In this document: positions 2,304-57,210 of the stretch, piece by piece
Layout of the letters: the number at the start of each line of letters is the position of its first letter
Numbering within the stretch: the first letter of the stretch is position 1
Assembly: GCA_949290355.1 (NCBI GenBank)
Contig: CASERN010000011.1
Coordinates: 669,865-733,864 of the forward strand
Source: an uncultured bacterium
GTDB lineage: Bacteria > Cyanobacteriota > Vampirovibrionia > Gastranaerophilales > Gastranaerophilaceae
Direction: 5' to 3'
Length of the DNA stretch: 64,000 bases
Program-made: the position numbers and the translations under genes
The notes under the pieces: generated by a model
Database searches by the model: none
Seen by the model: only the letters and a program-made list of their open reading frames with translations
What the model was told of the DNA's origin: nothing

Positions 2304-3479
2304 ATGGATATAGTAGAAAGTTTATACAAATTATGGCAATCGACAGGTATTGCAAATTTTGTTCAACCCGTTGATCCTAATATTACAAGCGGTTTTGAAC
2401 AATTTTTGCATCAATTCGGTTCTCCAATAATGATAATTGTTTGTTTATTTCTTCTTTGGTTAGGTATAAAAAAACAATTTGAACCGTTGTTGCTTGTCCC
2501 TATTGCTTTCGGAGGTTTGTTATCTAACATTCCTGTTGCTGATATTGCAGGGCCCCATGGCTTTTTAGGAATTATTTATGAATTTGGTATTCACCAAGGA
2601 TTATTTCCTTTGATTATTTTTATGGGTGTTGGAGCAATGACCGATTTTGGACCTTTGATTGCAAATCCTAAAACTTCGTTGTTAGGAGGAGCAGCTCAGT
2701 TTGGTATTTTTGCCGCTTTGCTTTTAGCATTATGTGTATTTGGCTTTACTTTACCACAATCAGGTGCTATTGGTATTATTGGTGGTGCAGATGGCCCAAC
2801 GTCAATTTATGTTACAACTAAATTAGCACCAGAACTATTGGGTGCAATTGCTGTTGCTGCGTATTCTTATATGGCTTTAGTTCCGGTAATCCAGCCTCCA
2901 ATTATGAAATTATTAACAACTGAAGCTGAAAGAAAAATTGAAATGACACAATTAAGAGAAGTGTCAAAACGTGAAAAAATAGTTTTCCCTTTAGTTGTAC
3001 TTGGGTTGTGTATTATTTTCTTACCTGATGCATGTCCATTAATTGGAGCTTTGACATTCGGTAATTTATGTAAAGAATGCGGTGTAGTGGAAAGATTGTC
3101 TGATACTATGCAAAATGCTTTAATCAATATTGTAACTATATTTTTAGGTCTTTCTGTTGGATCAAAATTGTCAGCTGAACAATTTTTGACTTTGCAGACT
3201 TTATTCATATTGATTTTAGGTATTTTAGCATTCTCTTTCGCAACAGCGGGTGGAGTTTTGTTCGCAAAATTTATGAATTTATTTTCAAAAAACAAAATCA
3301 ATCCACTTATAGGTTCGGCAGGTGTATCTGCAGTTCCAATGGCTGCACGAGTCTCAAATAAAGTAGGTTTGGAGGCTAATCCTCAAAATTACTTATTAAT
3401 GCATGCAATGGGACCAAACGTTGCTGGTGTTATTGGATCTGCGGTTGCTGCAGGTATATTACTTGCTTTGTGTAACTAG
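2304..3479 (+). CDS. oadB: Na+-translocating decarboxylase beta subunit
   Basis: 391-aa polytopic membrane protein with the IIGGADGPT motif typical of the OadB/GcdB/MmdB family. The oadGAB gene order supports the call. Confidence 0.9.
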
Positions 3480-4224: not shown

Positions 4225-5460
4225 ATGTCTATAGATAATGCATTGGTTATGATTTTAGCAGGTGGAGAGGGTAAGAGATTATACCCTTTAACAAAAGATA
4301 GAGCTAAACCTGCAGTACCTTTTGGTGGTAGATACAGAATAATAGATTTTGTTTTAAACAATTTTATAAATTCTGGTTTCTTCAAAATAAAAGTTTTAAC
4401 CCAATATAAATCTGATTCTTTAAATAAGCATATTACAAGAGGATGGGCGTTATCGCCGTTTTTAAATCAGTATGTTGATCTAGCTCCTGCTCAGATGAGA
4501 ACTGGATCTGATTGGTATAGAGGTACGGCTGATGCGATTTATCAAAATGTCTTTCATATAACAGATGAAGATCCTGATTATGTTTGTATTTTTGGAGGGG
4601 ATCATATTTATAAAATGGATGTCTCTCAAATGCTAGATTACCACAAGGAAAAAGATGCAGATTTGTCTATTTCGGCTATTCCTATTCCAATATCTGAAGC
4701 GCATGAATTTGGAATTATTGAAGTGGATGATGATTGGAAGCTAATAAATTTTGTTGAGAAACCAAAAGAAAAGCCTAAATCAATTCCAGGTAATCCTGAT
4801 ATGTGTCTAGCTTCTATGGGAAATTATATATTTAGCAAGGATATTTTACTTGATGCTTTAAATAGAGATGAAGAAATAAAAGAGTCAAGTCATGATTTTG
4901 GTAAAAATGTTATCCCAATGTTGTTAAAAGAAGGAAAAAGAGTGTATGTTTATAATTTTAATGATAATTCTTTCCCTGGAATGACAGATAGAGAGCGTGG
5001 ATATTGGATGGATGTAGGTAGTATTGATGCATATTGGCAAGCTAATATGGATTTATTGGATTATGACCCTGAGTTAAACTTGTATTCTCAAGATTGGCCT
5101 TTGAGGACTTTTAATTATAATTATCCTCCTGCAAAATTTATTTGGGAGGAAGGTGAAAGAGTTGGAATGGCAACAAATTCTATGGTATCAGAAGGATGTA
5201 TTGTCTCAGGTGCAGGACTTTCTCGATGTGTTTTGTCTCCAAAAGTAAAGGTAAATAGTTATTCTCAAATATCAGAAAGTATTTTAATGGAAAATGTTGA
5301 AATTGGTCGACATTCAAAAATTAAAAAAGCAATTATTGATAAAAATGTAATAGTACCGCCAAATACCCGTATTGGTTTTAATAAAGAAGAAGATGAACGA
5401 AGGGGCTTTCATGTTTCTCCAAATGGAGTTACAGTGGTACCTAAGGGTGCTAAACTTTAA
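4225..5460 (+). CDS. glgC: Glucose-1-phosphate adenylyltransferase
   Basis: The N-terminus ILAGGEGKRLYPLTKDRAKPAVPFGGRYRIIDFVLNN matches GlgC. A C-terminal left-handed beta-helix region is present. SD is AGGAG. Confidence 0.9.
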   Translation: MSIDNALVMILAGGEGKRLYPLTKDRAKPAVPFGGRYRIIDFVLNNFINSGFFKIKVLTQYKSDSLNKHITRGWALSPFLNQYVDLAPAQMRTGSDWYRGTADAIYQNVFHITDEDPDYVCIFGGDHIYKMDVSQMLDYHKEKDADLSISAIPIPISEAHEFGIIEVDDDWKLINFVEKPKEKPKSIPGNPDMCLASMGNYIFSKDILLDALNRDEEIKESSHDFGKNVIPMLLKEGKRVYVYNFNDNSFPGMTDRERGYWMDVGSIDAYWQANMDLLDYDPELNLYSQDWPLRTFNYNYPPAKFIWEEGERVGMATNSMVSEGCIVSGAGLSRCVLSPKVKVNSYSQISESILMENVEIGRHSKIKKAIIDKNVIVPPNTRIGFNKEEDERRGFHVSPNGVTVVPKGAKL

Positions 5461-5584
5461 GTTCTGGAATTTTTTTTATATTTGTTATATGCTTGCTTTG
5501 GCTATTGTAAATCTTTATTAATATGAAGGGATATTATGGCAATTCTTTGCCTTTACAGTCTTTATAGATTTGGGTAGTGAAATC

Positions 5585-6154
5585 ATGATATCAAGTATAA
5601 GATTAAATATTACAAATACTCCAATATATAAAAATATGTTGAGTTCTGCTCATAGTGCTCAACAGAAAGCCTTGAATTTACTTCCCAATAAAGCTTTTTC
5701 AGGTGAAAAGATGATAAAGGCTATGGATTATCTTGGAAAAAATTTCTCATCTGATAAACAAAGACTAGCTTTAGGTGTAACTGCTCTGGTTACTCAACCT
5801 ATTATTGATGCACATAATAGAGATGTTGATGAAAAAACTCGAAAAGTTTCTGTTGCAAGAACTATTGCCAAAATCATTGCTGGAACTTTTACCGGGTTCT
5901 TTATCAGATATGGTTGTATAAAGGCTATTAAAGCTTTTTCACAAATACCTGCTAAAGGAATAAAAAAATATAAAACTATTTTTACTCCACAGGGTGTAAA
6001 AGATAACACTACGGATGCTTTTGAACAATATCGTAATGCAATGGGTACTATTGTTGCTCTTGGTGTTATGGTGTTTACTAATTTCTTGATAGATGTTCCT
6101 CTTACAAAATTTTTGACAAATGTTTTTGTGAAAAATCAGGAGGATAAAAAATGA
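5585..6154 (+). CDS. Hypothetical membrane protein, tandem remote paralogue of the next gene
   Basis: Long ORF with hydrophobic segments (LGVTALVTQPII, IIAGTFTGFFI, IVALGVMVFTNFLI). The start is uncertain: ATG at 5585 or TTG at 5570. I recognise no family. Confidence 0.4.
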   Translation: MISSIRLNITNTPIYKNMLSSAHSAQQKALNLLPNKAFSGEKMIKAMDYLGKNFSSDKQRLALGVTALVTQPIIDAHNRDVDEKTRKVSVARTIAKIIAGTFTGFFIRYGCIKAIKAFSQIPAKGIKKYKTIFTPQGVKDNTTDAFEQYRNAMGTIVALGVMVFTNFLIDVPLTKFLTNVFVKNQEDKK

Positions 6155-8026: not shown

Positions 8027-9268
8027 TTATTCTGCAGAAATATAGCCTCTTAATGCAGTGTAAGCTGCAACGTATGGGGAAGCAAGGTATATCTTACCAT
8101 CAACATTACCCATTCTGCCTTGGAAATTTCTGTTTTGCGTTGCAAGACAAACCTCTCCATCAGCAAGCGTTCCGGCATGAACACCGACGCATGGTCCGCA
8201 TCCTGGAGGTAAAATTGTTGCATTTGCTTCTACAAATTTTTTTATTAATCCTTCTTCTAATGCATTTATGTATACATCTTTTGATGCTGGACAAATTAGC
8301 ATTCTAACATTTGGATTAATTTCTTTACCTTCAAGTATGTCAGCTACTACTCTCAAATCTTCTATACGTCCATTTGTGCAGGTTCCAACAAATACCTGGT
8401 CTACTTTAATATTTTTTAAATCTTTTACATTTTTTGTATTATCAACTGTGTGCGGACAAGCTACAGTATGTTCTATATCTTCTGCATTAATTTTTATTAT
8501 TCTTTCATAAATCGCATCATCATCTGGTCTTATACTTCTGAATTTATTTTCTCTTCCATGTTGTCTTAAAAATTCTTTTGTTTTTTCATCAGCTACAAAC
8601 AGTCCTGCTTTTGCACCTGCTTCTACTGCCATATTAGCAAGTGTAAATCTTTCCGACATATTCATTTTTTCAATTGTATCCCCGCAAAATTCAAGAGCTT
8701 TATAAGTCGCTCCATCTGCTCCTATTAACCCAATTATATATAGCATCAAGTCTTTAGAGCATATTCCTTTTTTGAAATTCCCGTTTACTTCTATTTTAAA
8801 TGTAGCGGGTACTTTTAGCCAAGTTTTTCCTAAAGCCATTGCTACAGCTACATCTGTAGAGCCCATTCCTGTTGCAAAGGCTCCAAGAGCTCCAGATGTG
8901 CAGGTATGAGAATCTGCTCCTACTAAAATTTCTCCGGGATTTACAAAGGATTCTACTAATCTTTGATGGCAAACTCCCGCTCCTACATCTGAAAGTATAG
9001 CACCATATTCTTTTGAAAAGTTCCTTAAAATAGTATGAGTGTTTGACAATTCTTTTCTTGGACTAGGAGAAGCGTGATCAATAAATAAAATTGTTCTTTG
9101 AGGATTGTGTAATTTTTCTTTTCCCAACTTCAAAAATTCTTGCACGGTTAAAGGACCTGTACCATCTTGTACTGCTGTAACATCTACATTTGCAATGACA
9201 AGTTCTCCTGCTTTAACTTTTTTCCCTGCGTGTTCTGATATTATTTTTTCTGCTAAAGTCTGTCCCAT
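8027..9268 (-). CDS. leuC: Aconitase-family dehydratase large subunit (3-isopropylmalate / homoaconitate dehydratase LeuC/HacA type)
   Basis: It has GADSHTCT, the Fe-S ligand motifs VGTCTNGR and PPGCGPC, and QNRNFQGR. Start is the ATG at 9268 after SD AAGGAG. No small-subunit gene is adjacent. Confidence 0.75.
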   Translation of the reverse strand: MGQTLAEKIISEHAGKKVKAGELVIANVDVTAVQDGTGPLTVQEFLKLGKEKLHNPQRTILFIDHASPSPRKELSNTHTILRNFSKEYGAILSDVGAGVCHQRLVESFVNPGEILVGADSHTCTSGALGAFATGMGSTDVAVAMALGKTWLKVPATFKIEVNGNFKKGICSKDLMLYIIGLIGADGATYKALEFCGDTIEKMNMSERFTLANMAVEAGAKAGLFVADEKTKEFLRQHGRENKFRSIRPDDDAIYERIIKINAEDIEHTVACPHTVDNTKNVKDLKNIKVDQVFVGTCTNGRIEDLRVVADILEGKEINPNVRMLICPASKDVYINALEEGLIKKFVEANATILPPGCGPCVGVHAGTLADGEVCLATQNRNFQGRMGNVDGKIYLASPYVAAYTALRGYISAE

Positions 9269-45780: not shown

Positions 45781-46586
45781 TTCAATACCTCAAATGCTTC
45801 ATTCACAATCTTTTCAATATCAAATTCGGTTTCATTGTCTTTATCTGTAGAAAGCCAAATGAGATATTCTATATTCCCAGACGGTCCTTTTATAGATGAA
45901 TATGTCAGACCTTTTATATTATATTCAAGTAATTTCGCGCAGGAAATAACATTTTTAATAACTTCTGAATGGATTTTTTTATCTCTTACTACTCCGCCTT
46001 TTTGAACATTTTCTTTCCCTGCTTCAAATTGAGGTTTTATAAGACAAATCATTTCATGAAAATTCGGATCAAGTAATTTTTTTAAATTTGCAAGAACTTT
46101 TGTAAGAGAAATAAATGATAAATCACTTACCAGCAGATTAGCTACAGGCTCATCTGCTTTATATATATCTTCATAGCTGCAAATTCTTAAATTTGTTTTT
46201 TCAATAGCTTTTACTCTTTTATCTGATCTGATTTTCCAGTCTAACTGCCCATATCCAACATCTGCGGCATATACAAATTTAGCACCATTTTGTAATAAGC
46301 AGTCTGTAAAACCTCCAGTAGATGCACCTGCGTCAAGGCATATTCTTTCATTAATTTTTACAGGAAAAGTGTCAAGTGCTTTTTTTAGTTTAAAACCGCC
46401 TCTTGATACGTATGGCATTGATTTTACCTGAATATCATATTCTTTAGTCGGATTAATTTGAAATCCGGCTTTTGTTATATATTCGTCGTTAATTTTTACT
46501 TGCCCTGCTAATATTGCTGATGCAGCTTTGCTTTTAGTATCAAAGTAGCCTAAATCTGTTAAATATTTATCTAATCTTTCTTTCAT
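45777..46586 (-). CDS. tlyA: TlyA-family rRNA (cytidine-2'-O)-methyltransferase
   Basis: N-terminal S4 domain (RLDKYL...SKAASAILAGQVKIN) and the FtsJ SAM motif LDAGASTGGFTDC. Confidence 0.85.
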   Translation of the reverse strand: MKERLDKYLTDLGYFDTKSKAASAILAGQVKINDEYITKAGFQINPTKEYDIQVKSMPYVSRGGFKLKKALDTFPVKINERICLDAGASTGGFTDCLLQNGAKFVYAADVGYGQLDWKIRSDKRVKAIEKTNLRICSYEDIYKADEPVANLLVSDLSFISLTKVLANLKKLLDPNFHEMICLIKPQFEAGKENVQKGGVVRDKKIHSEVIKNVISCAKLLEYNIKGLTYSSIKGPSGNIEYLIWLSTDKDNETEFDIEKIVNEAFEVLN

Positions 46587-47338
46587 ATATTAAATATTCT
46601 TTCCGCATTTTGTGTTGTAATATTTTTCACGTCATTTATGGTAATATTTTTAATTTTTGCGATTTCTTCTGCTACAAATTTTACATATGCCGGTTGATTT
46701 TCTTTCCCTCTATATGGTACAGGTGTTAAATATGGAGCATCTGTTTCCAGAATTATTTTTTCTATAGGCACATTTTTTACGACATCTTTCATTTTTATTG
46801 CGTTTTTAAATGTAACTACGCCGCCTATTCCTAAATACCACCCTTCTTTTATACATTCTTTAGCAAATTCTACGCTGCCTGAAAAGCAATGCATTATTAT
46901 TGTAGAATTTTTATTGTATTTTTTTACTATATCAAAAGTATCTTTATGCGCTTCTCTATCATGGATATCAATTGGGAGATTAAGAGAATTTGCAAGTTTT
47001 ATTTGTTTTATAAAAATTTCTTTTTGAAGCTCATTAAAACTTTTATCCCAGTAATAATCCAAACCTATTTCACCGATGCCTACAATTTTTTTGTTTTTTG
47101 AGTATTCTCTAATTTTATCAATTATACTATCGTCCCAGTCTTTCGCTTCAGATGGATGAATTCCAAGCATTCCATATACATTTTCGTATTTGTCAATTAA
47201 CTTCATTATGTCATCAAAGTCAGATTTACAGGCAGCTGGAACAATAACTTTTTCAATACCGTTTCTTTTTGCATTTTCAAGTATTTCGTCGGTGTTTAAT
47301 TCCAAAATTGTATTTATATGTGAATGTGTATCAATCAT
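46583..47338 (-). CDS. tatD: TatD-family metal-dependent hydrolase
   Basis: MIDTHSHIN, GEIGLDY, DIHDREA, IMHCFSG and ETDAPYL are all present. Confidence 0.85.
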   Translation of the reverse strand: MIDTHSHINTILELNTDEILENAKRNGIEKVIVPAACKSDFDDIMKLIDKYENVYGMLGIHPSEAKDWDDSIIDKIREYSKNKKIVGIGEIGLDYYWDKSFNELQKEIFIKQIKLANSLNLPIDIHDREAHKDTFDIVKKYNKNSTIIMHCFSGSVEFAKECIKEGWYLGIGGVVTFKNAIKMKDVVKNVPIEKIILETDAPYLTPVPYRGKENQPAYVKFVAEEIAKIKNITINDVKNITTQNAERIFNI

Positions 47339-48564: not shown

Positions 48565-50282
48565 ATAATATTGATAAGTTTTTGTGTTGCTTCCTCTGGT
48601 GTATATTTTTCTTGTTCTCCTGTTTCTCGGACTTTGTATTCAACGAATCCTTCATTAATTGTTTTCCCAACTGTTACTCTGTATGGGAAGCCTATCAAGT
48701 CAGCATCTTTGAATTTTACACCAGCTCTTTCATCTCTATCGTCAAGAACAACTTCTACTCCTGCTAATTTTAAAGCTTCATACATTTCATTTGCTACTTT
48801 CATTTGTAATTCATCTTTAATATTTACAGGTACTATTACAACATGGTATGGTGCAATAGCAATTGGCCATTTGATTCCGTGTTCGTCATAATGAGCTTCT
48901 ACAGCAGCTGCTGCAGTTCTTGAAATTCCTATTCCGTAGCAACCCATTACATAAGGATGAGTTTTCCCATTTATATCTGTATATACAGCATTCATTGGTT
49001 TTGAATATTTAGTTCCAAGTTTGAAAATATTTCCGACTTCAATACCTTTTGTTACAAATAAAGGTTTCCCGCATTGAGGGCAATATTCCCCTTGCTGTAC
49101 AAGTCTAATATCTGCATATTCTAATTCTGTTTCTAAATCGCATAAGTTAGCTCCAACTATATGTTTATCGGTAATATTTATACCTACAACAAAGTTTTTC
49201 ATATTACGGACAGTTTCATCTGCAATTATTGTAATATTTTTCATTCCCTTTGGCCCGATAAATCCCGGAACTGCATCAAAACCATTTTCTTCCATAAGTT
49301 CAGCGATTTCTGCAGAAGATGCAATTCTTACGTCTATACCACCAACAGCATTCATCAATTTTGTTTCTTCTACGGCTTTGTCTGCTCTAATTAATGCAAT
49401 TACAGGTTTTTTATCAATAATATATACAAGTGATTTTAAAATTAGTGTATCCGGAATATTTAAGAATTTACTTAATTCTTCGATAGAATGAGTGTTTGGA
49501 GTATCAATTACTTTTGTTTCTTTGAAGTAATCTTTTCCATCAACTACAGCATCAGGCAAGTTAGATATTGCATGGTTTGAATTTGCAGAATAATCGCAAT
49601 GATTGCAGTAGAATACGTCATTTTCTCCTGCATCAGTATCGGTTATAACCATAAATTCATGTGATACGCTTCCGCCAATTGCACCTGAATCAGATTGGAC
49701 CATCTTTGTATCAAGTCCACATCTTTCAAATATTTTTTTATAAGCTTTAGCCATATTTTGATATTCTTTATCAAGTCCGGCTTCATCAATATCAAAACTG
49801 TATGCATCTTTCATTATAAATTCACGGCCTCTTAAAAGTCCGTATCTTGGTCTTATTTCATCTCTGAATTTAGATTGAATTTGATATAGATTAACTGGTA
49901 ATTGTTTATATGACTTTAATGCATCACGTGCAACTGATGTAATGATTTCTTCGTGAGTAGGGCCAAGACACATATCTCTGTCATGGCGGTCTTTAAGACG
50001 CATTAATTCGCGGCCGTATACTTCCCATCTGCCTGATTCTTCCCATAATTCTTTAGGTTGAACGAAAGGCATTAAAAGTTCTTGTGCGCCTGCATTATCC
50101 ATTTCTTCTCTAACGATATTTTCTATTTTTTTCAAAACTCTCCACATCAAAGGCATATAAGTGTATACCCCTGGAGCAAGTTTTTTTATAAACCCTGCTC
50201 TACCAAGCATTTTGTGAGATATAACTTCAGCGTCAGAAGGATATTCTCTTAGGGTTTGTACAAACATTTTTGACATTTTCAT
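48549..50282 (-). CDS. proS: Proline--tRNA ligase (bacterial type with editing insertion)
   Basis: MKMSKMFVQTLREYP, class II motifs (FRDEIRPRYGLLRGREF, GCYGIGISR) and a central INS domain. It is 577 aa. Confidence 0.95.
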   Translation of the reverse strand: MKMSKMFVQTLREYPSDAEVISHKMLGRAGFIKKLAPGVYTYMPLMWRVLKKIENIVREEMDNAGAQELLMPFVQPKELWEESGRWEVYGRELMRLKDRHDRDMCLGPTHEEIITSVARDALKSYKQLPVNLYQIQSKFRDEIRPRYGLLRGREFIMKDAYSFDIDEAGLDKEYQNMAKAYKKIFERCGLDTKMVQSDSGAIGGSVSHEFMVITDTDAGENDVFYCNHCDYSANSNHAISNLPDAVVDGKDYFKETKVIDTPNTHSIEELSKFLNIPDTLILKSLVYIIDKKPVIALIRADKAVEETKLMNAVGGIDVRIASSAEIAELMEENGFDAVPGFIGPKGMKNITIIADETVRNMKNFVVGINITDKHIVGANLCDLETELEYADIRLVQQGEYCPQCGKPLFVTKGIEVGNIFKLGTKYSKPMNAVYTDINGKTHPYVMGCYGIGISRTAAAAVEAHYDEHGIKWPIAIAPYHVVIVPVNIKDELQMKVANEMYEALKLAGVEVVLDDRDERAGVKFKDADLIGFPYRVTVGKTINEGFVEYKVRETGEQEKYTPEEATQKLINIIKAVK

Positions 50283-50401
50283 AAAACTAATTCCTCATAT
50301 AATATTTTATATTAATGATTTTATCATAAAAAAAACATATTGAAATTTAATTGAAAATAAGTTATAATATTTTTGTTATATAAGAATACGAGGAGCAAAT
50401 T

Positions 50402-50449
50402 ATGAAAAAAATGTTAACGAATATGCCTTTCGGGGGGGGGGCGATTTAA
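50402..50449 (+). CDS. Candidate 15-codon upstream ORF (MKKMLTNMPFGGGAI) traversing the G10 tract
   Basis: SD AGGAG lies 7 nt upstream of the ATG. A same-length ORF with the same SD and the same FGGGAI* ending occurs at the second pilin locus. Coding status is unproven. Confidence 0.3.
   Translation: MKKMLTNMPFGGGAI
50432..50441 (+). repeat. G10 homopolymeric tract (candidate hypermutable simple sequence repeat)
   Basis: Ten consecutive G in an AT-rich window where every other G or C run I saw is 5 or shorter. The twin tract is at 55503-55512. Confidence 0.9.
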
Positions 50450-50474
50450 GGCTTTCTACAAAGGTTTTCGGGGG

Positions 50475-50502
50475 TTGCAAAAGTAAAAAAATCTGTTATA
50501 AT
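50475..50502 (+). promoter_or_regulatory. Sigma-70-type promoter with extended -10 for prepilin-like gene 1
   Basis: TTGCAA, a 16-nt spacer, then TGT-TATAAT (TGn extended -10). It is identical in copy 2. Confidence 0.6.
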
Positions 50503-50538
50503 AGTAATGTATGTCATCACAATTATAGCGGAGAGTTT

Positions 50539-51249
50539 ATGAAAAGATTATTCGGATTTACGTTAGCAGAGGTATTGATTACACTTGGAATTATTGGAGT
50601 TGTGGCTGCAATGACTATTCCTACATTAGTTGCAAATTATCAAAAGCAGGTTTGGGTTACTCAATTAAAAAAAGATGCAAACTTTATTTCGAATAGCATT
50701 AAAAAAGTATTAGCTGATGAAGAAGTTGATTCTCTTTGTAATGCATCTATTGGCGGCTGTAGCAGCAACTATATCAATATTGATGTTCCGAATATAAATC
50801 GTCCATATATTTTAGGTGAAAAATTTGGAAAGTATTTTGATCTGTCACCTGTAGAGCATGGAACTTTATTTTATGAAGCAATGGAGAACGAAATACCTAG
50901 TGCAGGTAGTGATGTTTCAGATTGGATAAAAGCTTTTTATTTAAAAGATGGCTCTTGCATAGCTACTGCTACAACTTATTCTACAACAGGTACAGCAGGT
51001 GCAACTGCTGCGTTAGGCTTTTTCGTTGATGTTAACTGTGATAAAGGCCCTAATAAGTGGGGACGTGATAGATTTTTAATAAACTATGATGCAAGAGGAA
51101 ATATTCCTGGATCAGGTTTCTCTGATGAAGAAATGAATTTGATTAAATCTATATGTTATTCAGGTGATGATATTATGGAGCAAGCCGGATTTTTGGCGGG
51201 ATTTTGTTCTCTTGATATTATTAGAAATGGTTGGCAGATGAAGTATTAG
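50539..51249 (+). CDS. Prepilin-type N-terminal cleavage/methylation domain protein (type IV pilin / T2SS pseudopilin-like)
   Basis: Class III signal peptide MKRLFG|FTLAEVLITLGIIGVVAAMTIP with Glu5. The motif FFVDVNCDKGPNKWGRDRF is shared with the second gene. SD is GGAGAG. Confidence 0.85.
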   Translation: MKRLFGFTLAEVLITLGIIGVVAAMTIPTLVANYQKQVWVTQLKKDANFISNSIKKVLADEEVDSLCNASIGGCSSNYINIDVPNINRPYILGEKFGKYFDLSPVEHGTLFYEAMENEIPSAGSDVSDWIKAFYLKDGSCIATATTYSTTGTAGATAALGFFVDVNCDKGPNKWGRDRFLINYDARGNIPGSGFSDEEMNLIKSICYSGDDIMEQAGFLAGFCSLDIIRNGWQMKY

Positions 51250-52172
51250 TTTATAAACTTGTCCAATTCTTTTTTTATTAATTTGGGCGGAATTGTTAAT
51301 GTATTATTATTTTTTAATGCATTATTCATACATTTAACATACTCATCATTTGCTTTTCTTAATTTTTGAATTTGGGCAAGTATGTAATAAGAATCTCCAT
51401 TTGCACCACAATTATCAATAGATTCTTCCATAATCATTGCAGCATTGTCATAGTGATGTTGTTTTGCCATTATTTTGGCATATATTCTATATGCATCAAT
51501 ATCTTTTGGGTTTAATTCAAGAGTTTTTCGCAGATTTTGGATAGCTGAACTTAAATTTCCTTCATCAAAATCTATTGATGCAAGATTATAATATGCCCAG
51601 CTGTAATCGGGTGATAGTTCAAGTACTTTTTTGAATTTATCTTTTGCACCAGCATTATCGCCTTGTTCTTTTAAAATATTTCCAATGTAAAAATGAGCAT
51701 ATATATCTTCATCATTAAGATCTATTGTTCTTTGAAAATAGTATTTTGCTCCGTCCAGTTTACCTTCTTTAAAATAACAAAGTCCTATTGAAAAATAGGC
51801 ATTTGAATCATTATTATCTTTTGCTAATACATTTTCAAAACAGTCTATAGCAGTTTCGAACTTTTTTTTATCAAGACATACAAGACCTAAATTGTAAAAA
51901 GCATCTGTTTCATTTGGAGATATCTCAATAGATTTTCTATATGCTTCTTCTGCTTTGTCTAAATCTTTTAGTTTTTCGTAAGTAATTCCAAGATTGTAAA
52001 AAATTCCACTGTCATCTGTAAAAATTTTTGATAAATATATAAAATGCTGTTTTGCTTCCTCTGGATATCCACAATCAAGCAATAATACAGCCAGTTCTCT
52101 GCGAGCTTGAAAATTTGTTGCATCTTCTTTTAAAAGATTTTGTAATTCTTCTATTTTATCAATTTTAGACAT
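51246..52172 (-). CDS. TPR-repeat protein
   Basis: It has about eight TPR units, for example AEEAYRKSIEISPNETDAFYNLGLVC. Confidence 0.7.
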   Translation of the reverse strand: MSKIDKIEELQNLLKEDATNFQARRELAVLLLDCGYPEEAKQHFIYLSKIFTDDSGIFYNLGITYEKLKDLDKAEEAYRKSIEISPNETDAFYNLGLVCLDKKKFETAIDCFENVLAKDNNDSNAYFSIGLCYFKEGKLDGAKYYFQRTIDLNDEDIYAHFYIGNILKEQGDNAGAKDKFKKVLELSPDYSWAYYNLASIDFDEGNLSSAIQNLRKTLELNPKDIDAYRIYAKIMAKQHHYDNAAMIMEESIDNCGANGDSYYILAQIQKLRKANDEYVKCMNNALKNNNTLTIPPKLIKKELDKFIN

Positions 52173-52279
52173 ATTAAAATTGTACTAATTTTTATTAATT
52201 CGAGCAACTTCTTAATATTTTGCTATTGCTTTTTTTTATAAATTTGCTAAAATGGATTGAAAAATAAGGAGAGTATATT

Positions 52280-52954
52280 ATGAGATTTTTAGCTATAATT
52301 TTTTCGATTTTACTTTTTGCTCAAACAGCAATATCTGCACCATTTAGTGCAAATGCTAAAACAAAAAGAATCCCTGCAGGAACAAAGTTTTCTCTAAAAC
52401 TTATGAATCCAGTATCTACAATGACAAATTCTGCAGGCTCAGAATTTACTGCAATATTGATGACAGATGAGACTGCTGATTCTGATGTTATACTGCCTAT
52501 GGGTTCATTAGTGAGAGGTACTATTAAAAAAATAGAACCTGCAAAACGTATGTCCAAGGGTGCAATTTTATATCTTGATTTTGATCATGTTGTTACTCCA
52601 AATGGGAGACAGTTACCATTAACTTTTTCTGTAATAGGTAGAAGTGATTTGACATATGACGGCGGAATTACATCTTCAAGAGGTTATAAAGACGCTTTGA
52701 AAGAAAATTGGGAAGTAACAAAAGATATTACAAGTTCTGCTACAGAATGGGGCGGAGATGTATTTGATGATGTGATTGTGGCTGATCAATTGATGACAGG
52801 AATTTGTGCTGTAGGTGGCGCAATTGGAGGCGGTGCTTATTATATATATGATGGTATTGCTGATATGATAAGAAAAGGAAAAGATGTTAATTTAAGACAA
52901 GGTGAAGTCTTAAATGTTATTCTTGTTGACCCTGTGGATGTTCCTGTAATTTAG
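52280..52954 (+). CDS. Secreted protein with TrbI/VirB10-like beta-barrel pattern and C-terminal Gly-rich hydrophobic segment
   Basis: Signal peptide ILLFAQTAISA. IPAGTKFSLKLMNPVST...AILMTDE...VILPMGSLVRGTI...VVTPNGRQLPL resembles the VirB10/TrbI C-terminal domain pattern. This is a call by eye only. Confidence 0.45.
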   Translation: MRFLAIIFSILLFAQTAISAPFSANAKTKRIPAGTKFSLKLMNPVSTMTNSAGSEFTAILMTDETADSDVILPMGSLVRGTIKKIEPAKRMSKGAILYLDFDHVVTPNGRQLPLTFSVIGRSDLTYDGGITSSRGYKDALKENWEVTKDITSSATEWGGDVFDDVIVADQLMTGICAVGGAIGGGAYYIYDGIADMIRKGKDVNLRQGEVLNVILVDPVDVPVI

Positions 52955-52983
52955 GAAGCTTTTATATTTTTTATAATTAATTT

Positions 52984-53014
52984 GTAGGATAAGTCTTTAA
53001 TATACTTATCCTAC
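52984..53014. terminator. Bidirectional terminator between convergent genes
   Basis: Perfect 11-bp stem GTAGGATAAGT/ACTTATCCTAC with a 9-nt loop. The 3' arm overlaps the cyclase stop codon. Confidence 0.6.
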
Positions 53015-54772
53015 TTGATTTCTCCCATTATTTTTAGCATTATATAATTTTTTATCAGCAGCTTCAATAAGTTCAGATGCATTTTCTCCATCATAAGGAA
53101 ATGTAGCTACTCCTAAGCTGATTGTTACATTAGATTCTTTATCATTAGTAAGTTTAAATTTTTTTGCGGCAACTTTTTCACAAATTTTCTTAGCTGTTGA
53201 CATTGCTTCTTCTTTATCTGTGTTTGCTAGAATAATACTCATTTCCTCTCCGCCGTATCTGCATACAATATCTGTAGATCTGACATTCTTTTTTAATGTT
53301 TGCGCTACTTGACGCAATACGGCATCTCCTGATTGATGACCGAATTTGTCATTAAACTTTTTAAAGAAATCTATATCAATAATAATAAGTGAAAAGTTGG
53401 TATCGTATCTTCTGCATTGTTCAATTTGCATTCTTAGGTGTTCTTGGAAATATCTGTGGTTGTATAATTCTGTTAGTCCATCAGTTGTTGCAAGTTTGTA
53501 TTGCTGCTCAAAATCTCTTGATTTTAAAATATATTTTATTATATATGCACAGGTAAAAGCTAGAATAGAGAATATCAAAGGATATGTAACATTAAGCCAA
53601 AGATTTTCAAATTTCATTGCATAATATGAAATAAATAAGTATATTATGTATGTTGAACATGACACTAATGATGCGGTAAATGCGGAACTTACTCTTGTTA
53701 CAACGGAGCCAATCAGTAGTGCTAATAATATACTTAGTGTAATTGTGTATTTTTTATTTACTTTTTTAATAAAGTTGTTATCTATCATGTTATTAATATA
53801 AGTAGCTTGTATTTCTACTCCAGGATAAATTTTGCCTGTTGGAACGGTTTTTATATCAAATAAGCTTGAAGCTGTTGTTCCAAAGTATATTATTTTATTA
53901 GAAAAATCATAATTAAGATCTGTTTGTTCTCCATTAACGATTTTTATGAGTTTATAAATCGGAATATATGTATAAGTACCTGCAGGCCCGTACCAATTTA
54001 ATATAGCACTGCCATCGTTATCCAAATATATTTTTTTATCTCCGAATATAAAGTTAGAATTTTTATCAATTGCAAAAGAAGAAGTATTTTCTCCCAAATA
54101 ATCTACTCCAATTTTGAATGCAAGTTGTGGGTAAAATTCTCCATTATATTTTACGACAACTGGCATTTTCCTTAGTATTCCGTCATCTGAACGAGAAACG
54201 TTTATTATTCCTATGTTTGATGTTGCATCAATAATTCCTTGCAATATCGTTCTACAATTTTTGAACGACAGTTTATCAAATTTTATTTGAGAAGAATTAT
54301 CAATTTCTACCGTAAGTTTGTGGGGTAATTTAGGGGGCATTCTCAAATCTTCTGATTGATTATCAAAATTCATTGCGGTGTATAAATTTTTATATTTTTT
54401 GAAAGAATTAATTAATGCTTCATCGGCTTTGTTTTTACTTTTGAGTGATTTTACAAACATCATATCAAAAGCTATTGATCTTGGATTTTGTTTTTCAAGG
54501 TAATTGATAATACTAGCATAAATATCTCTTGAAAGAGGCCATTCTCCATAATTATCCAATATGTATTCATAAGAAGCATCATCTACAGCTATAATAACTA
54601 TGTCTTTATTCGCTTGTTTTGCTCCTTCTGATATTAATATATTTTGCCTTAAATCAAATGTCCTATTTTCAACAGAATCAATGAAAGCTATTAAATTAGC
54701 ATTCTTAAATATTAAAAACGTAAAAATCGCAAAGAATAACAATCCCAATGCGTATAATATTCTTTTTAACAT
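53006..54772 (-). CDS. Diguanylate cyclase with periplasmic CHASE2 sensor domain
   Basis: The layout is N-terminal TM, about 300 aa extracytoplasmic region, three TM helices, then a GGDEF domain. The active site is RYGGEEM and the I-site RSTD lies five residues upstream. Confidence 0.85.
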   Translation of the reverse strand: MLKRILYALGLLFFAIFTFLIFKNANLIAFIDSVENRTFDLRQNILISEGAKQANKDIVIIAVDDASYEYILDNYGEWPLSRDIYASIINYLEKQNPRSIAFDMMFVKSLKSKNKADEALINSFKKYKNLYTAMNFDNQSEDLRMPPKLPHKLTVEIDNSSQIKFDKLSFKNCRTILQGIIDATSNIGIINVSRSDDGILRKMPVVVKYNGEFYPQLAFKIGVDYLGENTSSFAIDKNSNFIFGDKKIYLDNDGSAILNWYGPAGTYTYIPIYKLIKIVNGEQTDLNYDFSNKIIYFGTTASSLFDIKTVPTGKIYPGVEIQATYINNMIDNNFIKKVNKKYTITLSILLALLIGSVVTRVSSAFTASLVSCSTYIIYLFISYYAMKFENLWLNVTYPLIFSILAFTCAYIIKYILKSRDFEQQYKLATTDGLTELYNHRYFQEHLRMQIEQCRRYDTNFSLIIIDIDFFKKFNDKFGHQSGDAVLRQVAQTLKKNVRSTDIVCRYGGEEMSIILANTDKEEAMSTAKKICEKVAAKKFKLTNDKESNVTISLGVATFPYDGENASELIEAADKKLYNAKNNGRNQVG

Positions 54773-54800
54773 AAGCCTCTAATCTTCTTAAATTATTCAA

Positions 54801-54968
54801 TTATTTTATTATATCAGTATAATTGAATGTTGAAGATTTGGCAACAAAATTTTTTAGGATAAATTGTTTTTCAAGGATAAAGTTATTTAGTTTTAATACT
54901 TCAGTTGAATATGATAATTCATCAGGGTTTTGTAAATATCTTAGTAGGCATTGCTCGTGCAGATTCAT
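54801..54968 (-). CDS. Possible 55-aa protein upstream of the cyclase gene
   Basis: An ATG-initiated ORF (MNLHEQCLLRYLQNPDELSY...) with SD AAGGTG. It falls below the ORF-track length cutoff. I recognise no homology. Confidence 0.25.
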   Translation of the reverse strand: MNLHEQCLLRYLQNPDELSYSTEVLKLNNFILEKQFILKNFVAKSSTFNYTDIIK

Positions 54969-55159
54969 ATAATTTAATCACCTTTTAAACTAATTTCGTA
55001 TAACTTTCTCATTATTGCAAATTTAATAAAAATTAACATCAGACAAATGCATGAGATTTAAAAAGCTATTGCACTTTTTTATTTCTGTAGTACTATTATA
55101 TCAGTAGAACTAAATTTATAATCAAGTTTGGAATCTTGAGAAAAAGAAAGAGGTAAAAA

Positions 55160-55363
55160 ATGAAACAAGGAATACATCCGGATTATAAAAAAACTGTAAT
55201 CAAATGTGTATGCGGTAATGAGATTGAAACTGGTTCAATAAATGATAATATCACTGTTGAAATTTGTAACAATTGTCATCCATTTTACACAGGTCAACAA
55301 AAAATCTTAGACTCAGAAGGTCGTGTTGAAAGATTTAATAAACGTTACGGTAAAAAAGCGTAG
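55160..55363 (+). CDS. rpmE: 50S ribosomal protein L31 (zinc-ribbon form)
   Basis: [11 protein letters not shown]...CVCG...[15 protein letters not shown] is AAGAGG. Confidence 0.95.
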
Positions 55364-55386
55364 TTTTTTTCTGCAGATAAGATAAT

Positions 55387-55422
55387 AAAAAAACAAGAGA
55401 ATTTTACTTCTCTTGTTTTTTT
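55387..55422 (+). terminator. Rho-independent terminator after rpmE
   Basis: AAAAAAACAAGAGA, an 8-nt loop, then TCTCTTGTTTTTTT. Confidence 0.8.
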
Positions 55423-55472
55423 ATGGTAAATCGTTTATAATAATCAATATATAAATGAAAGGAGCAAGATTT

Positions 55473-55520
55473 ATGAAAAGATTTGACTTATTGCAGGATT
55501 TCGGGGGGGGGGCGATTTAA
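55473..55520 (+). CDS. Candidate 15-codon upstream ORF (MKRFDLLQDFGGGAI) traversing the G10 tract
   Basis: SD AGGAG. The length and the 30-nt ATG-to-tract spacing match copy 1, although codons 3-9 differ. Confidence 0.3.
   Translation: MKRFDLLQDFGGGAI
55503..55512 (+). repeat. G10 homopolymeric tract, copy 2
   Basis: Ten consecutive G at the position homologous to 50432-50441. Confidence 0.9.
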
Positions 55521-55545
55521 GGCTTTCCACAAAGGTTTTAGGGGG

Positions 55546-55573
55546 TTGCAAAAGTAAAAAAATCTGTTATAAT
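55546..55573 (+). promoter_or_regulatory. Sigma-70-type promoter with extended -10 for prepilin-like gene 2
   Basis: TTGCAA, a 16-nt spacer, then TGT-TATAAT. Confidence 0.6.
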
Positions 55574-55609
55574 GGTAATGTATGTCATCACAATTATAGC
55601 GGAGAGTTT

Positions 55610-56350
55610 ATGAAAAAAATATTCGGATTCACATTGGCAGAGGTATTGATTACTTTAGGAATTATAGGAGTTGTAGCAGCATTAACTATACCCTCTGTAA
55701 TTGGAAATTATAAAAAAGAGGTGACTGCTAAAAAATTAGAACATACCTATTCAGTATTATCTCAAGCACTAAGGGCTGCTCAAGCAGAACATGGAGACCC
55801 TGCTAATTGGGATCTAGGTGGTTTTTATTATGGTATGCCTGCAGATGGAAGTAAAGAAACTATTTTGAATAATTTCGCAAGTAATTATTTATTGCCTTAT
55901 TTGAAAGTGATTAAAGATTACGGTTTTGTTACAACAAGCCAAGCTTCAACAAAAGTAGGATATGACGGTCCTTATAAGCCTATATCAAATGACTTTGCCG
56001 GTTTAAATGAAGGATATTATTTTGTTTTAGCTGATGGTACTTTAGTAAATTTATTTCTAGGTTCAAATTGTTCAGGATATGATTCTGATGGAAAATGTAA
56101 TGCGTATTCATACGCTTATATAACTTTTGGTGTTGATATAAACGGTTCAAAAGGTAATAATCAACTCGGTAAAGAGTACTTTTTGATGTATTATAATCAA
56201 GCAACCCATAAATTTTTGATGTATAGTGCAGGAAATAATGCTTCTAGAGATTTTATGCGAAGCTCTTGTAATACTGATGATGCATTAAGTTGTGGTGGAC
56301 TTATTCAGTATGACGGATGGAAGATAAAGGATGATTACCCTTGGTTTTAG
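55610..56350 (+). CDS. Prepilin-type N-terminal cleavage/methylation domain protein (type IV pilin / pseudopilin-like)
   Basis: MKKIFG|FTLAEVLITLGIIGVVAALTIP. It has the shared motif FGVDINGSKGNNQLGKEYF and a C-terminal DGWKIK resembling NGWQMK of gene 1. Confidence 0.85.
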   Translation: MKKIFGFTLAEVLITLGIIGVVAALTIPSVIGNYKKEVTAKKLEHTYSVLSQALRAAQAEHGDPANWDLGGFYYGMPADGSKETILNNFASNYLLPYLKVIKDYGFVTTSQASTKVGYDGPYKPISNDFAGLNEGYYFVLADGTLVNLFLGSNCSGYDSDGKCNAYSYAYITFGVDINGSKGNNQLGKEYFLMYYNQATHKFLMYSAGNNASRDFMRSSCNTDDALSCGGLIQYDGWKIKDDYPWF

Positions 56351-57210
56351 TTAGGGCATCTGGCTAGCCAGATATCGCTCACTACATTTTCTAATACTCT
56401 TTTACTAACAGAACCTGTTAAAAAACGATCTAATTTTGATTTGTTTTTAGAACCTAATATTATTAGGTCAATATTGTGTGTTCTTGTATATTCTATTATT
56501 CGTTGTGCAGGTATGCCATTTAATATTGCTGTTTCATATGCTTTTATATTATATTGATTCAAGATTCTTTCTATATCTTCAATTGCGCTCGCTGCATATT
56601 TTTGTTGTTGTTTTTGTATTTCAAATAACCAATTTGTATCTAATGTCCCATCCAAAAATAAAAGATTAGGGTCTTCGTTTACCATGCAAATATGTATTTC
56701 TTTATTTTCTAAATTTAAAGATGGTATTATTTTATCTAATATATTCAAAGAACATTTTGTTCCATCTGTTGTGATAAGCAGTTTTTTCTTTTCGTTTTCT
56801 TCTTTTGAAATATAATTTGAGATTTTGCTGCTGTTGATTATTTCTTGGGATACTGATCCAAGCCATTTTTGCAGTCCCTTTTTCCCATGCGATCCCATTA
56901 AAATAAGATCATAATCTTTTTTGTTAGCCTGCTCAAGTATACTTTCAATTGCAGAGCCGCAATTTTTTATTTTTTCACCGGTTTTAAGACCTAATTTTTC
57001 AATTTCTTCTGTTGCATAATCAAGTATTGTATCGGCAACGTTAGCGCAAGAGTATGAAAAATTTTTTTCTTCTATATTTATTTCATCTGGTAAAAAACTC
57101 CAATCAATTACGCAAATAGTATCTATTTCTGCATTATTTATCCAGCCGTTAATGTTTTTTAATGCTTTAAAACTGATTTTTGAACCGTCTGTGCAAAATA
57201 ATATTTTCAT
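56347..57210 (-). CDS. Universal stress protein, tandem Usp domains
   Basis: Two repeats of the pattern MKILFCTDGS...LILMGSHGK / LLITTDGT...LIILGSKNKSKLDRFLTGSVS. SD is AAGGAG. Confidence 0.75.
   Translation of the reverse strand: MKILFCTDGSKISFKALKNINGWINNAEIDTICVIDWSFLPDEINIEEKNFSYSCANVADTILDYATEEIEKLGLKTGEKIKNCGSAIESILEQANKKDYDLILMGSHGKKGLQKWLGSVSQEIINSSKISNYISKEENEKKKLLITTDGTKCSLNILDKIIPSLNLENKEIHICMVNEDPNLLFLDGTLDTNWLFEIQKQQQKYAASAIEDIERILNQYNIKAYETAILNGIPAQRIIEYTRTHNIDLIILGSKNKSKLDRFLTGSVSKRVLENVVSDIWLARCPN

Follow-up and report, generated by a model that had tools for sequence, protein, structure and literature searches.

Surface-structure genes and gene families that are switched by short repeats offer the closest described parallels to the element analyzed here, a 111-nucleotide (nt) block present in two near-identical copies, A and B, upstream of two pilin-like genes (pilin A and pilin B) in a 64-kb stretch of DNA, hereafter the window (64,000 nt of contig CASERN010000011.1), from an uncultured gut bacterium of the Gastranaerophilales. 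The opa genes of Neisseria form a multigene surface family in which each leader-coding region carries a repeat switch and the paralogues recombine. The vlp/vsa families of Mycoplasma join a conserved 5′ block of promoter, leader and signal sequence to divergent mature regions and are switched by a homopolymer. In the Neisseria gene pilC, the G tract is reportedly located in the region that encodes the signal peptide. As described in the literature, pilC is a phase-variable gene with a genic G(9-20) tract and opa carries a genic CTTCT(7-21) repeat (PMC5953494). For the poly-G tracts of Campylobacter jejuni, the modal length is G9, and lengthening from G8 to G11 raises mutability ten-fold and moves the changes from insertions to deletions (PMC3401435).

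The element shares features with each of these systems. As in pilC, a G tract is located in the cleavable N-terminal leader of a pilus-associated gene, where a frameshift leaves the mature protein unaltered. Unlike in pilC, the tract belongs to genes for pilin-like subunits, within a class III leader of unusual length, and many paralogues in one genome carry it; in some members it is followed by a second promoter and start codon, and the host is an uncultured gut relative of cyanobacteria. As in C. jejuni, the genome is AT-rich, G/C runs of 8-11 are confined to surface-structure genes, and the tracts have a modal length (mostly G10 here). However, the C. jejuni tracts are scattered over unrelated genes (glycosylation, capsule, restriction-modification), whereas those described here occupy a fixed place in one homologous 5′ cassette, and most copies are one step below the in-frame length. 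With opa the element has in common a surface multigene family, a leader repeat switch in each copy and the exchange of segments between paralogues, although the repeat is a homopolymer instead of a pentamer and the proteins are prepilin-type instead of beta-barrel outer-membrane proteins. In vlp, a poly-A tract between the −35 and −10 elements affects transcription; the present tract is part of an upstream coding frame and would affect translation. Functionally, the element is a simple-sequence contingency locus, a known on/off device in a new lineage, and no new class of regulatory element is needed. In a literature search, no paper was retrieved that connects pilin phase variation with Gastranaerophilales or Melainabacteria. 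The account that we consider likely is that of a slippage-prone G10 cassette, carrying the promoter and ribosome-binding site of a pilin-like gene family, which was recently copied between two genes.

The resemblance between the two blocks is real, and is neither an assembly artefact or collapse nor the result of a recent whole-gene duplication. By direct pairwise comparison, 50428-50538 and 55499-55609 carry the same base at 108 of 111 positions and differ at 50457 (T/C), 50469 (C/A) and 50503 (A/G), exactly as reported in the initial annotation of this stretch. Its count of 20 differences in the first 96 coding nt of pilin A and pilin B is also exact, and where it had noted at least eight purely synonymous changes, we counted 10 such codons. 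The paralogues are old, as it had proposed: among codons for the same amino acid at the start of the two genes, 10 of 25 (40%) differ at the third position, and the proteins are 29% identical overall. The left edge of the block is sharp, with only 26 of the 60 nt preceding TTTC-G10 identical in an ungapped comparison, as for unrelated sequences; on the right, similarity fades across the conserved N-terminal region of the pilins and totals 86% over 243 nt. The window contains two occurrences of a 30-mer from the block, where shuffled sequences predict 0.00, and the two G10 tracts are the sole G or C runs of at least 6 nt in the whole window (30.4% GC). Two further sources contain the block, namely L001, which is an independent metagenome contig, and the sister strain L002 (GCA_964328035.1); in the latter, copy A matches at 111 of 111 positions and copy B shows two differences from its counterpart.

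Each block is embedded in a longer arrangement of putative signals, listed below (SD, Shine-Dalgarno site; ORF, open reading frame; a slash marks the predicted cleavage site).

50340-50368, + strand: P1 A, putative upstream promoter-like site TTGAAA-17-TATAAT, 11/12 in the consensus scan
50390-50395, + strand: SD1 A (GAGGAG) of upstream ORF A, read from the sequence
50402-50449, + strand: upstream ORF A, in the G10 state MKKMLTNMPFGGGAI followed by a stop; fused in frame to the pilin at G11
50428-50538, + strand: repeat block copy A, comprising TTTC-G10, linker, promoter-like site, dyad and second SD; defined by pairwise identity
50432-50441, + strand: homopolymeric G10 tract A, candidate slippage site; also G10 in L001 and L002
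50442-50538, + strand: linker A, without stops in the pilin frame (DLRLSTKVFGGCKSKKICYNSNVCHHNYSGEF)
50475-50502, + strand: P2 A, internal promoter-like site TTGCAA-16-TATAAT with TG extension, from the consensus scan
50504-50520, + strand: dyad A, imperfect GTAAT-N7-ATCAC just past the −10, read from the sequence
50530-50535, + strand: SD2 A (GGAGAG) of the annotated pilin start, read from the sequence
50539-51249, + strand: pilin-like gene A, 236 amino acids (aa), MKRLFG/FTLAEV..., PF07963 and TIGR02532
55436-55441, + strand: TATAAT, −10-like, weak P1 candidate upstream of ORF B, read from the sequence; no full promoter called here by the consensus scan
55460-55464, + strand: SD1 B (AGGAG) of upstream ORF B, read from the sequence
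55473-55520, + strand: upstream ORF B, in the G10 state MKRFDLLQDFGGGAI followed by a stop; in frame with the pilin at G11
55499-55609, + strand: repeat block copy B, defined by pairwise identity
55503-55512, + strand: G10 tract B; also G10 in L002
55546-55573, + strand: P2 B, internal promoter-like site, from the consensus scan
55575-55591, + strand: dyad B, sequence as in copy A
55601-55606, + strand: SD2 B
55610-56350, + strand: pilin-like gene B, 246 aa, MKKIFG/FTLAEV..., PF07963 and TIGR02532

The upstream start codon (ATG1, at 50402 and 55473) sits with its SD1 about 30 nt upstream of each block. Both upstream ORFs enter the G10 tract and terminate two codons past it, one nucleotide out of the pilin frame. 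When altered tracts are translated, either G11 or G8 makes the upstream ORF continuous through the linker and the annotated start (ATG2) into the prepilin, and a change in tract length would be expected to move the window genes between an OFF frame (G10) and an ON frame (G11/G8). The predicted fused product, MKKMLTNMPFGGGGDLRLSTKVFGGCKSKKICYNSNVCHHNYSGEFMKRLFG/FTLAEV..., has a 52-residue leader. The leader was initially described as non-coding, a description too simple for a stretch that is stop-free in the pilin frame and lies downstream of an SD and ATG. The prepilin motif, with G or A at −1, F at +1 and E at +5, is present together with its hydrophobic helix (MKRLFG/FTLAEVLITLGIIGVVA), and both proteins score above the cut-offs of PF07963 (22.2 bits for pilin A and 22.5 for pilin B; cut-off 21.2) and TIGR02532 (18.5 and 18.1 bits; cut-off 16.3). 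Class III (prepilin) leaders are short and basic, usually under ~30 residues. The leader counted from ATG2, at six residues, is typical in length, while the 52 residues of the fused ON form and the 38-88 found in relatives are atypically long. No library family covers the leader extension.

The same arrangement is found across a family of pilin-like genes. The family set was assembled from loci of pilin A homologues and from species-representative genomes scanned with TTTCGGGGGGGGN{0,9}TTTAARGCTT; after removal of same-locus duplicates, it comprised 26 distinct pilin-like genes with an upstream G or C run of at least 8. Matches to the tract motif came from metagenome-assembled genomes (MAGs) titled Candidatus Gastranaerophilales, 'uncultured Vampirovibrio' and 'Clostridium sp. 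CAG:768'. The ProRS encoded in the window has 90% identity to proteins named 'Clostridium sp. CAG:729' and 'Candidatus Melainabacteria bacterium 35_41', and with these matches the window is assigned to a gut member of the Melainabacteria, order Gastranaerophilales. All 26 genes have an SD-like site and an ATG within 120 nt upstream of the tract. From the tract to F(+1), 25 of the 26 are stop-free in the pilin frame, over a median of 31 and up to 88 codons; in the two control frames, the same stretch is stop-free in 0/26 and 1/26. Every G/C run of at least 8 in the loci scanned is located at the 5′ end of a pilin-like gene. The best-sampled 'type-1' leader reads M[KE]RFDG...FGGGG[DS]L[RK]LTPQGFRG.FK..VSGQAARLG/FTLAEV. 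Pairwise differences among type-1 leaders number 9/11/32 at codon positions 1/2/3, and the extension is therefore a translated and selectively maintained long prepilin leader. Cassette-bearing genes have the prepilin N-terminal motif, often with DUF6613, and share one order: SD1-ATG1, ~6-30 codons, a G (or C) tract of 8-12 nt, a stop-free linker, and the cleavage site after G or A and before FTLAEV. The 111-nt block thus probably makes up most of a modular 5′ cassette that is common to a large pilin-like family of gut Gastranaerophilales (Melainabacteria). Pilin genes without a tract also exist, at 3240 and 6443 of L009 and in the conserved two-gene pilin operon of P0117, which serves as a contrast case; these genes carry the promoter-SD-ATG module only. 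A scan of JGI metagenomes with the invariant 26-mer described below gave no matches, and a scan with the tract pattern gave only duplicates of species already in the set and soil contigs that lack a pilin motif near the G/C run.

Variation in tract length was observed directly at a family locus, that of P0004, with 53% identity to pilin A and the same arrangement down to the internal TTGCAA...TGTTATACT module. Across five assemblies, each from a different sample, the tract is G10 three times (L043, L044, L045), G11 once (L005) and G12 once (L006), and the 600 nt that follow it are 100% identical in all ten pairwise comparisons. These length alleles on identical flanks are phase variation. At this locus G10 is the in-frame length, and its product, P0242 (304 aa), is the fused protein predicted from the G11 and G12 alleles. 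One gene is represented in a single 90% cluster by three forms, ON (P0260), alternative-frame (P0007) and internal-start (P0258), and canonical MKRF...GGGG...FTLAEV fusions are present in the databases (P0059, P0068, P0073, P0078, P0094, P0121, P0130, P0141, P0142). A query with the leader peptide returned only proteins of up to 112 aa, so that no ON:OFF ratio was obtained. The two window loci themselves presumably switch as well. Among the candidates in the initial annotation, a phase-variation cassette is thus borne out by a G10 tract in an upstream ORF one nucleotide off the pilin frame and by a homologous locus with G10, G11 and G12 alleles. Its proposed check for further copies preceding prepilin-type genes turned up the same architecture before 26 distinct pilin-like genes, and its statement that no feature type fully explains the leader can be dropped, since all of the parts are of known kinds.

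To calibrate the similarity of the two leaders, we used the same leader subtype in two other lineages, L022a and L041. Between lineages, identity is 66% in the post-tract block (window copy A versus L022a only), 79-87% in the promoter block (GGGGTTG to SD2) and 75-79% in the first 75 nt of mature coding sequence. Between window copies A and B, by comparison, identity is ~97% over the whole 111-nt leader and 77% in the first 75 nt of mature coding sequence. On the between-lineage clock, ~25 differences would be expected in the leader, and three were observed. The leaders of the L022a and L022b paralogues, 2.2 kb apart, have clearly diverged. Because the N-terminal coding sequences of A and B are as distant as those between lineages and yet the leader is 97% identical, we infer a recent homogenization by gene conversion or 5′-cassette exchange between old paralogues, and not extreme purifying selection. 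Superimposed on this homogenization, real nucleotide constraint appears to be limited to a promoter core of ~26 nt. TTTC-G10-C marks the left boundary of the exchanged segment and the GFTLAEVLITLG coding segment its right boundary; both edge sequences are common to the whole family and are natural anchors for homologous exchange. The pattern is that of a sharp-edged block of near-identity between old paralogues (97%, as against 26/60 to its left, 77% to its right and 29% between the proteins).

Comparison with the sister strain L002 adds between-strain mosaic polymorphisms that match the state of the other paralogue. Housekeeping genes differ by ~0.1-0.2% between the window and L002, while pilin A differs by 5.1%, the 135 nt upstream of leader B by 11%, leader B by 1.8% and the first 74 nt of pilin B by 5.4%. 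The 5′ end of pilin B in L002 reads TTT ACG TTA, which is the copy A state, versus TTC ACA TTG in copy B of the window, and leader B of L002 has copy A's C at the 50469/55540 position. Exchange of 5′ modules is also seen elsewhere in the family. P0247 and P0004 share a mature pilin but differ in the 5′ module before it, and L007 and L008 encode an identical mature protein (P0037) behind different leaders, of which the L008 leader resembles that of the neighbouring paralogue in L007. The direction and the mechanism of conversion are presumed from such patterns. Breaks in assemblies tend to fall at the cassette: L002 stops after 72 nt of pilin B, and in the MAG JAMPCZ01 several contigs end at the motif.

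Further signs of rearrangement were noted around family members. A second, degenerate (A/G)FTLAE motif is present inside the leader of a minus-strand gene in L003 (F codon at 8139) and in P0005, P0082, P0090, P0092 and P0247, ahead of the real one; it resembles a trace left when 5′ cassettes recombine unequally. Pilin A differs from its L002 counterpart at 36 positions (5.1%), most notably in 50800-51198, the C-terminal two thirds of the gene, and above all at 50996-51015; a dense patch with an indel is among these differences. The 3′ end of the adjoining TPR gene (51267-51304) is also enriched in L002 differences. Judged from these alignments, the C-terminal region of pilin A and the 3′ end of the TPR gene appear to be a hot spot of recombination or diversification. 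Between two housekeeping genes, FtsJ-like and TatD, L002 has an additional pilin-like gene (5099-6044, ~950 bp) that bears a C10 tract; in the window the FtsJ-like and TatD genes overlap at ~46583-46587, in DNA whose surroundings are 99.8% identical to L002. The presence or absence of family members thus varies between close strains.

A working model can be proposed. The tract would be a slipped-strand hypermutable site, and its length would set whether translation from ATG1 reads through to the pilin. Both window tracts, at G10, would be OFF; slippage to G11 or G8 would give a long-leader prepilin from ATG1, whose leader would be removed at the G/F junction to leave the mature protein unchanged. 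In the window subtype, the linker would also hold the family's ordinary pilin promoter, P2 (TTGCAA-16-TGtTATAAT), followed by the dyad, SD2 and ATG2. Because P2, SD2 and ATG2 form a complete short-type start, the window genes are probably not silent at G10. A short-leader prepilin is probably still made from P2-SD2-ATG2, and in that case the tract would adjust expression instead of shutting it off. More speculatively, a hairpin between the −10 region and the sequence before SD2 might, in transcripts from P1, make SD2 dependent on ribosomes arriving from ATG1.

Several points weigh against this account. Length polymorphism on identical DNA was found in the family and not at the window loci, where copy A is G10 in three assemblies (window, L001, L002) and copy B in two (window, L002). 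With P2, SD2 and ATG2 intact, the effect of the tract on the two window genes may be small. The case for conversion is built on patterns of identity, and this exact leader subtype is known from only two copies in the genome. In addition, simple symmetric switching does not predict the skew in frame status described next, which calls for an extra assumption.

To come into frame with the pilin, 20 of the 26 family genes need one more nucleotide and four need one fewer, while two are already in frame. The excess of +1 over −1 cases (20 versus 4) has a binomial p of 0.0015, an optimistic value given the lack of independence among paralogues. The tract is G10 in 16 genes, C10 in three, G9 in four, G8 in two and G11 in one. 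On the simplest reading of this skew, the modal length is set by mutational bias, most members are phased with the mode in the OFF state, and a metagenome consensus shows the majority state only. The P0004 locus agrees with this reading: there, the modal G10 is the length that is in frame, and three of the five samples show the ON state. What remains odd is the +1 skew, together with the way the tract module is oriented, and this leaves a modest chance of something more unusual.

One such possibility, which we regard as unlikely, is that the state of being one G short, shared by 20 of 26 genes in several genera and leader subtypes, is designed and not a by-product of mutational bias: low-level −1 ribosomal slippage or RNA-polymerase stuttering on G9-G10 would be constitutive, changes in tract length would be layered on top of it, and the module would also serve as a recombination anchor for 5′ cassettes. 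The TTTC-Gn-C...AAGCT module does keep the same chromosomal orientation whatever the direction of the gene. This orientation is seen at three minus-strand pilin-like genes with a C10 tract in the coding strand (L002 5934-5950, L003 8317-8331, L027 100-113), where the tract encodes APPP or SPPP. On the opposite strand, these loci read TTTC-G10-C followed within 20 nt by AAGCT/AGCTT, the flanks of the G-type cassette, so that the module is inverted relative to the gene and all tracts in these loci are G on one DNA strand regardless of gene direction. Such strand-fixed G tracts, in three cases only, hint at a constraint at the level of the DNA or of the replication strand. GC skew in the window tracks gene orientation and does not reveal the direction of replication. 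An invertible-segment switch was also considered for the C-tract genes, and was set aside as their flanks are unlike a simple inversion of the G-type cassette.

Programmed recoding, in which tracts are purposely kept one G short and the pilin frame is reached through constitutive −1 ribosomal slippage on GGG GGG GGG G or through addition of a G by RNA polymerase, with no role for heritable changes in length, is quite unlikely. It would account directly for the 20 of 26 genes that need exactly +1 when only two are in frame, for a zero-frame ORF that stops 2-3 codons past the tract in every +1 allele, and for the constant tract lengths across independent assemblies (window/L001/L002, L003/L004, L010/L029, L025/L033, L027/L034); a homopolymer would also allow perfect re-pairing of tRNA-Gly after a slip. 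However, lengths are not fixed at one short: four genes are off in the other phase, L010/L029 is two steps from its in-frame length, and at a single locus identical flanks surround tracts of G10, G11 and G12. In-frame alleles are frequent in public data; the predicted folds, which were not searched systematically, gave no sign of a stimulatory structure 5-9 nt past the tract; and mutational bias toward a modal length accounts for the skew (PMC3401435).

It is very unlikely that the upstream ORF and tract are a relic, that is, the dead remnant of a long-leader ancestor, with expression coming only from P2, SD2 and ATG2 and the identity of the leaders arising as a by-product of 5′ duplication. 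P2-SD2-ATG2 does resemble the complete short-type start of tract-less pilin genes, and both window tracts are OFF in every assembly seen. Even so, both old paralogues have a long stop-free linker in the order SD1-ATG1-G10-linker-P2-dyad-SD2-ATG2, both one G short, and SD1, ATG1, the tract and 32 stop-free codons are kept not only in these two copies but also in the diverged L022a and L041, the latter in frame. A dead remnant is also hard to reconcile with linkers that are open in 25/26 genes, against 0-1/26 in control frames, and with the L005-type gene, which has the same internal module and is ON in three samples.

Constraint on the nucleotides themselves centers on the extended −10 of P2. 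This site, TTGCAA-16-TATAAT with TG, scored 10/12 in the consensus scan in both copies; its hexamers are conserved relative to L005 while the spacer is variable, and the same module, upstream of the SD and ATG, is the only promoter candidate of the tract-less pilin genes (L009). By its hexamers, its place within the 16-18 nt spacing range and its conservation among relatives, P2 resembles a sigma-70-type promoter, and both P1 and P2 are presumed from their sequences to be active. A 26-nt core, AAAAAATCTGTTATAATRGTRATGTA, is invariant in three lineages even at would-be third codon positions, which would fit a promoter core. It is nonetheless highly improbable that the whole 111 nt is a cis-regulatory element, whether a leader RNA or a multi-site protein-binding region, in which nearly every base is selected. 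Beside the core, such an element could claim the dyad after the −10 and a predicted hairpin in which the −10 region pairs with sequence before SD2. This hairpin is kept in L022a and L041, through one-sided changes and with one mismatch in L041, and no pair has changed on both sides across the three lineages; no covariance model was built. The folds of the two leaders have modest z-scores of −1.8 and −2.1, and an Rfam scan of 49800-56500 at E up to 10 returned only four chance matches to eukaryotic snoRNAs and miRNAs elsewhere in the region. Outside the core, identity falls to 66-87% between lineages, the L022 paralogue leaders have diverged, and the stop-free pilin frame indicates coding-type constraint instead. 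Of the initial proposals, a cis-regulatory RNA thus finds no footing in the Rfam, folding or covariation results. Between strong constraint and leader-restricted gene conversion, the contrast of 66-87% across lineages with 97% within the window favors conversion, constraint holding for the 26-nt core and not for the rest.

Further observations concern the dyad and other structures in the leader. Across the family, the dyad consensus is GTGAT-N7-ATCAC, 1-2 nt past the −10 in most cassettes and also present in L005, L010, L016, L022 and L042. Both half-sites are conserved in sequence, with no covariation, a pattern more suggestive of an operator over the start of transcription than of an RNA hairpin. 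Other candidate explanations of the block were dropped. G10 and G5 are unable to supply the four G3 runs of a G-quadruplex. An amino-acid attenuator with a Gly-codon leader peptide does not agree with a tract of 10 nt, which is not made of whole codons, with C-tracts that encode Pro, or with a linker under coding constraint in the pilin frame. Against a mobile element, such as a miniature inverted-repeat transposable element, the block lacks terminal repeats and shares homology with the 5′ regions of genes throughout the family.

Finally, a recent whole-gene duplication or an assembly collapse, which two near-identical 111-nt blocks 5 kb apart might at first suggest, is almost certainly wrong given the abrupt left end of the identity and its decay on the right, proteins that are 29% identical, third-position differences in 40% of same-amino-acid codons, and independent assemblies that reproduce both copies.

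The preferred account, a slippage-prone cassette recently copied between two genes, bears on a little-studied lineage, common and uncultured in human and animal guts. Gastranaerophilales seem to have numerous pilin-like genes that are each gated by a poly-G tract and swap 5′ cassettes, a pattern suggestive of population-level variation in pili or pseudopili, the kind of strategy that is used against host immunity or phage. The cassette also has a practical consequence for annotation. Gene callers systematically mis-start genes of this family at internal ATG, GTG or TTG codons or in alternative frames (L003 1525, L007 195, L005 7617). Because OFF alleles are called from internal starts or in alternative frames, the database proteins of the family have inconsistent, artefactual N-termini.

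Several minor observations accompany these results. In type-1 leaders (L007 ~2935-2960, L008, L009), a perfect GC-rich hairpin, CAAGCG-GCA-CGCTTG, encodes ...GQAARLG immediately before the cleavage site; many relatives conserve it in both nucleotide and protein sequence. The MAG JAMPCZ01, which is titled Muribaculaceae (L012, L017, L018, L020, L023, L024, L028), holds at least seven copies of TTTC-G9-TAACCTTTTAAGGCTTGTCTTTCC; the N-termini of their upstream ORFs vary, and several of the contigs end at the motif. As the cassette is typical of Gastranaerophilales, the name may reflect mis-binning or mislabelling. In the window, a 17-bp stem-loop with a T run at 55385-55424 directly follows rpmE (L31, 55160-55363) and is a likely intrinsic terminator between rpmE and the pilin B cassette; it was called on the − strand but is symmetric. 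Upstream of a tract-less pilin operon (L036-L040, 880-1010), the intergenic region and the start of a Fer4/CCG-domain gene differ completely between samples, with the gene called at 385, 366 or 359 aa, a replacement polymorphism unrelated to the present finding.

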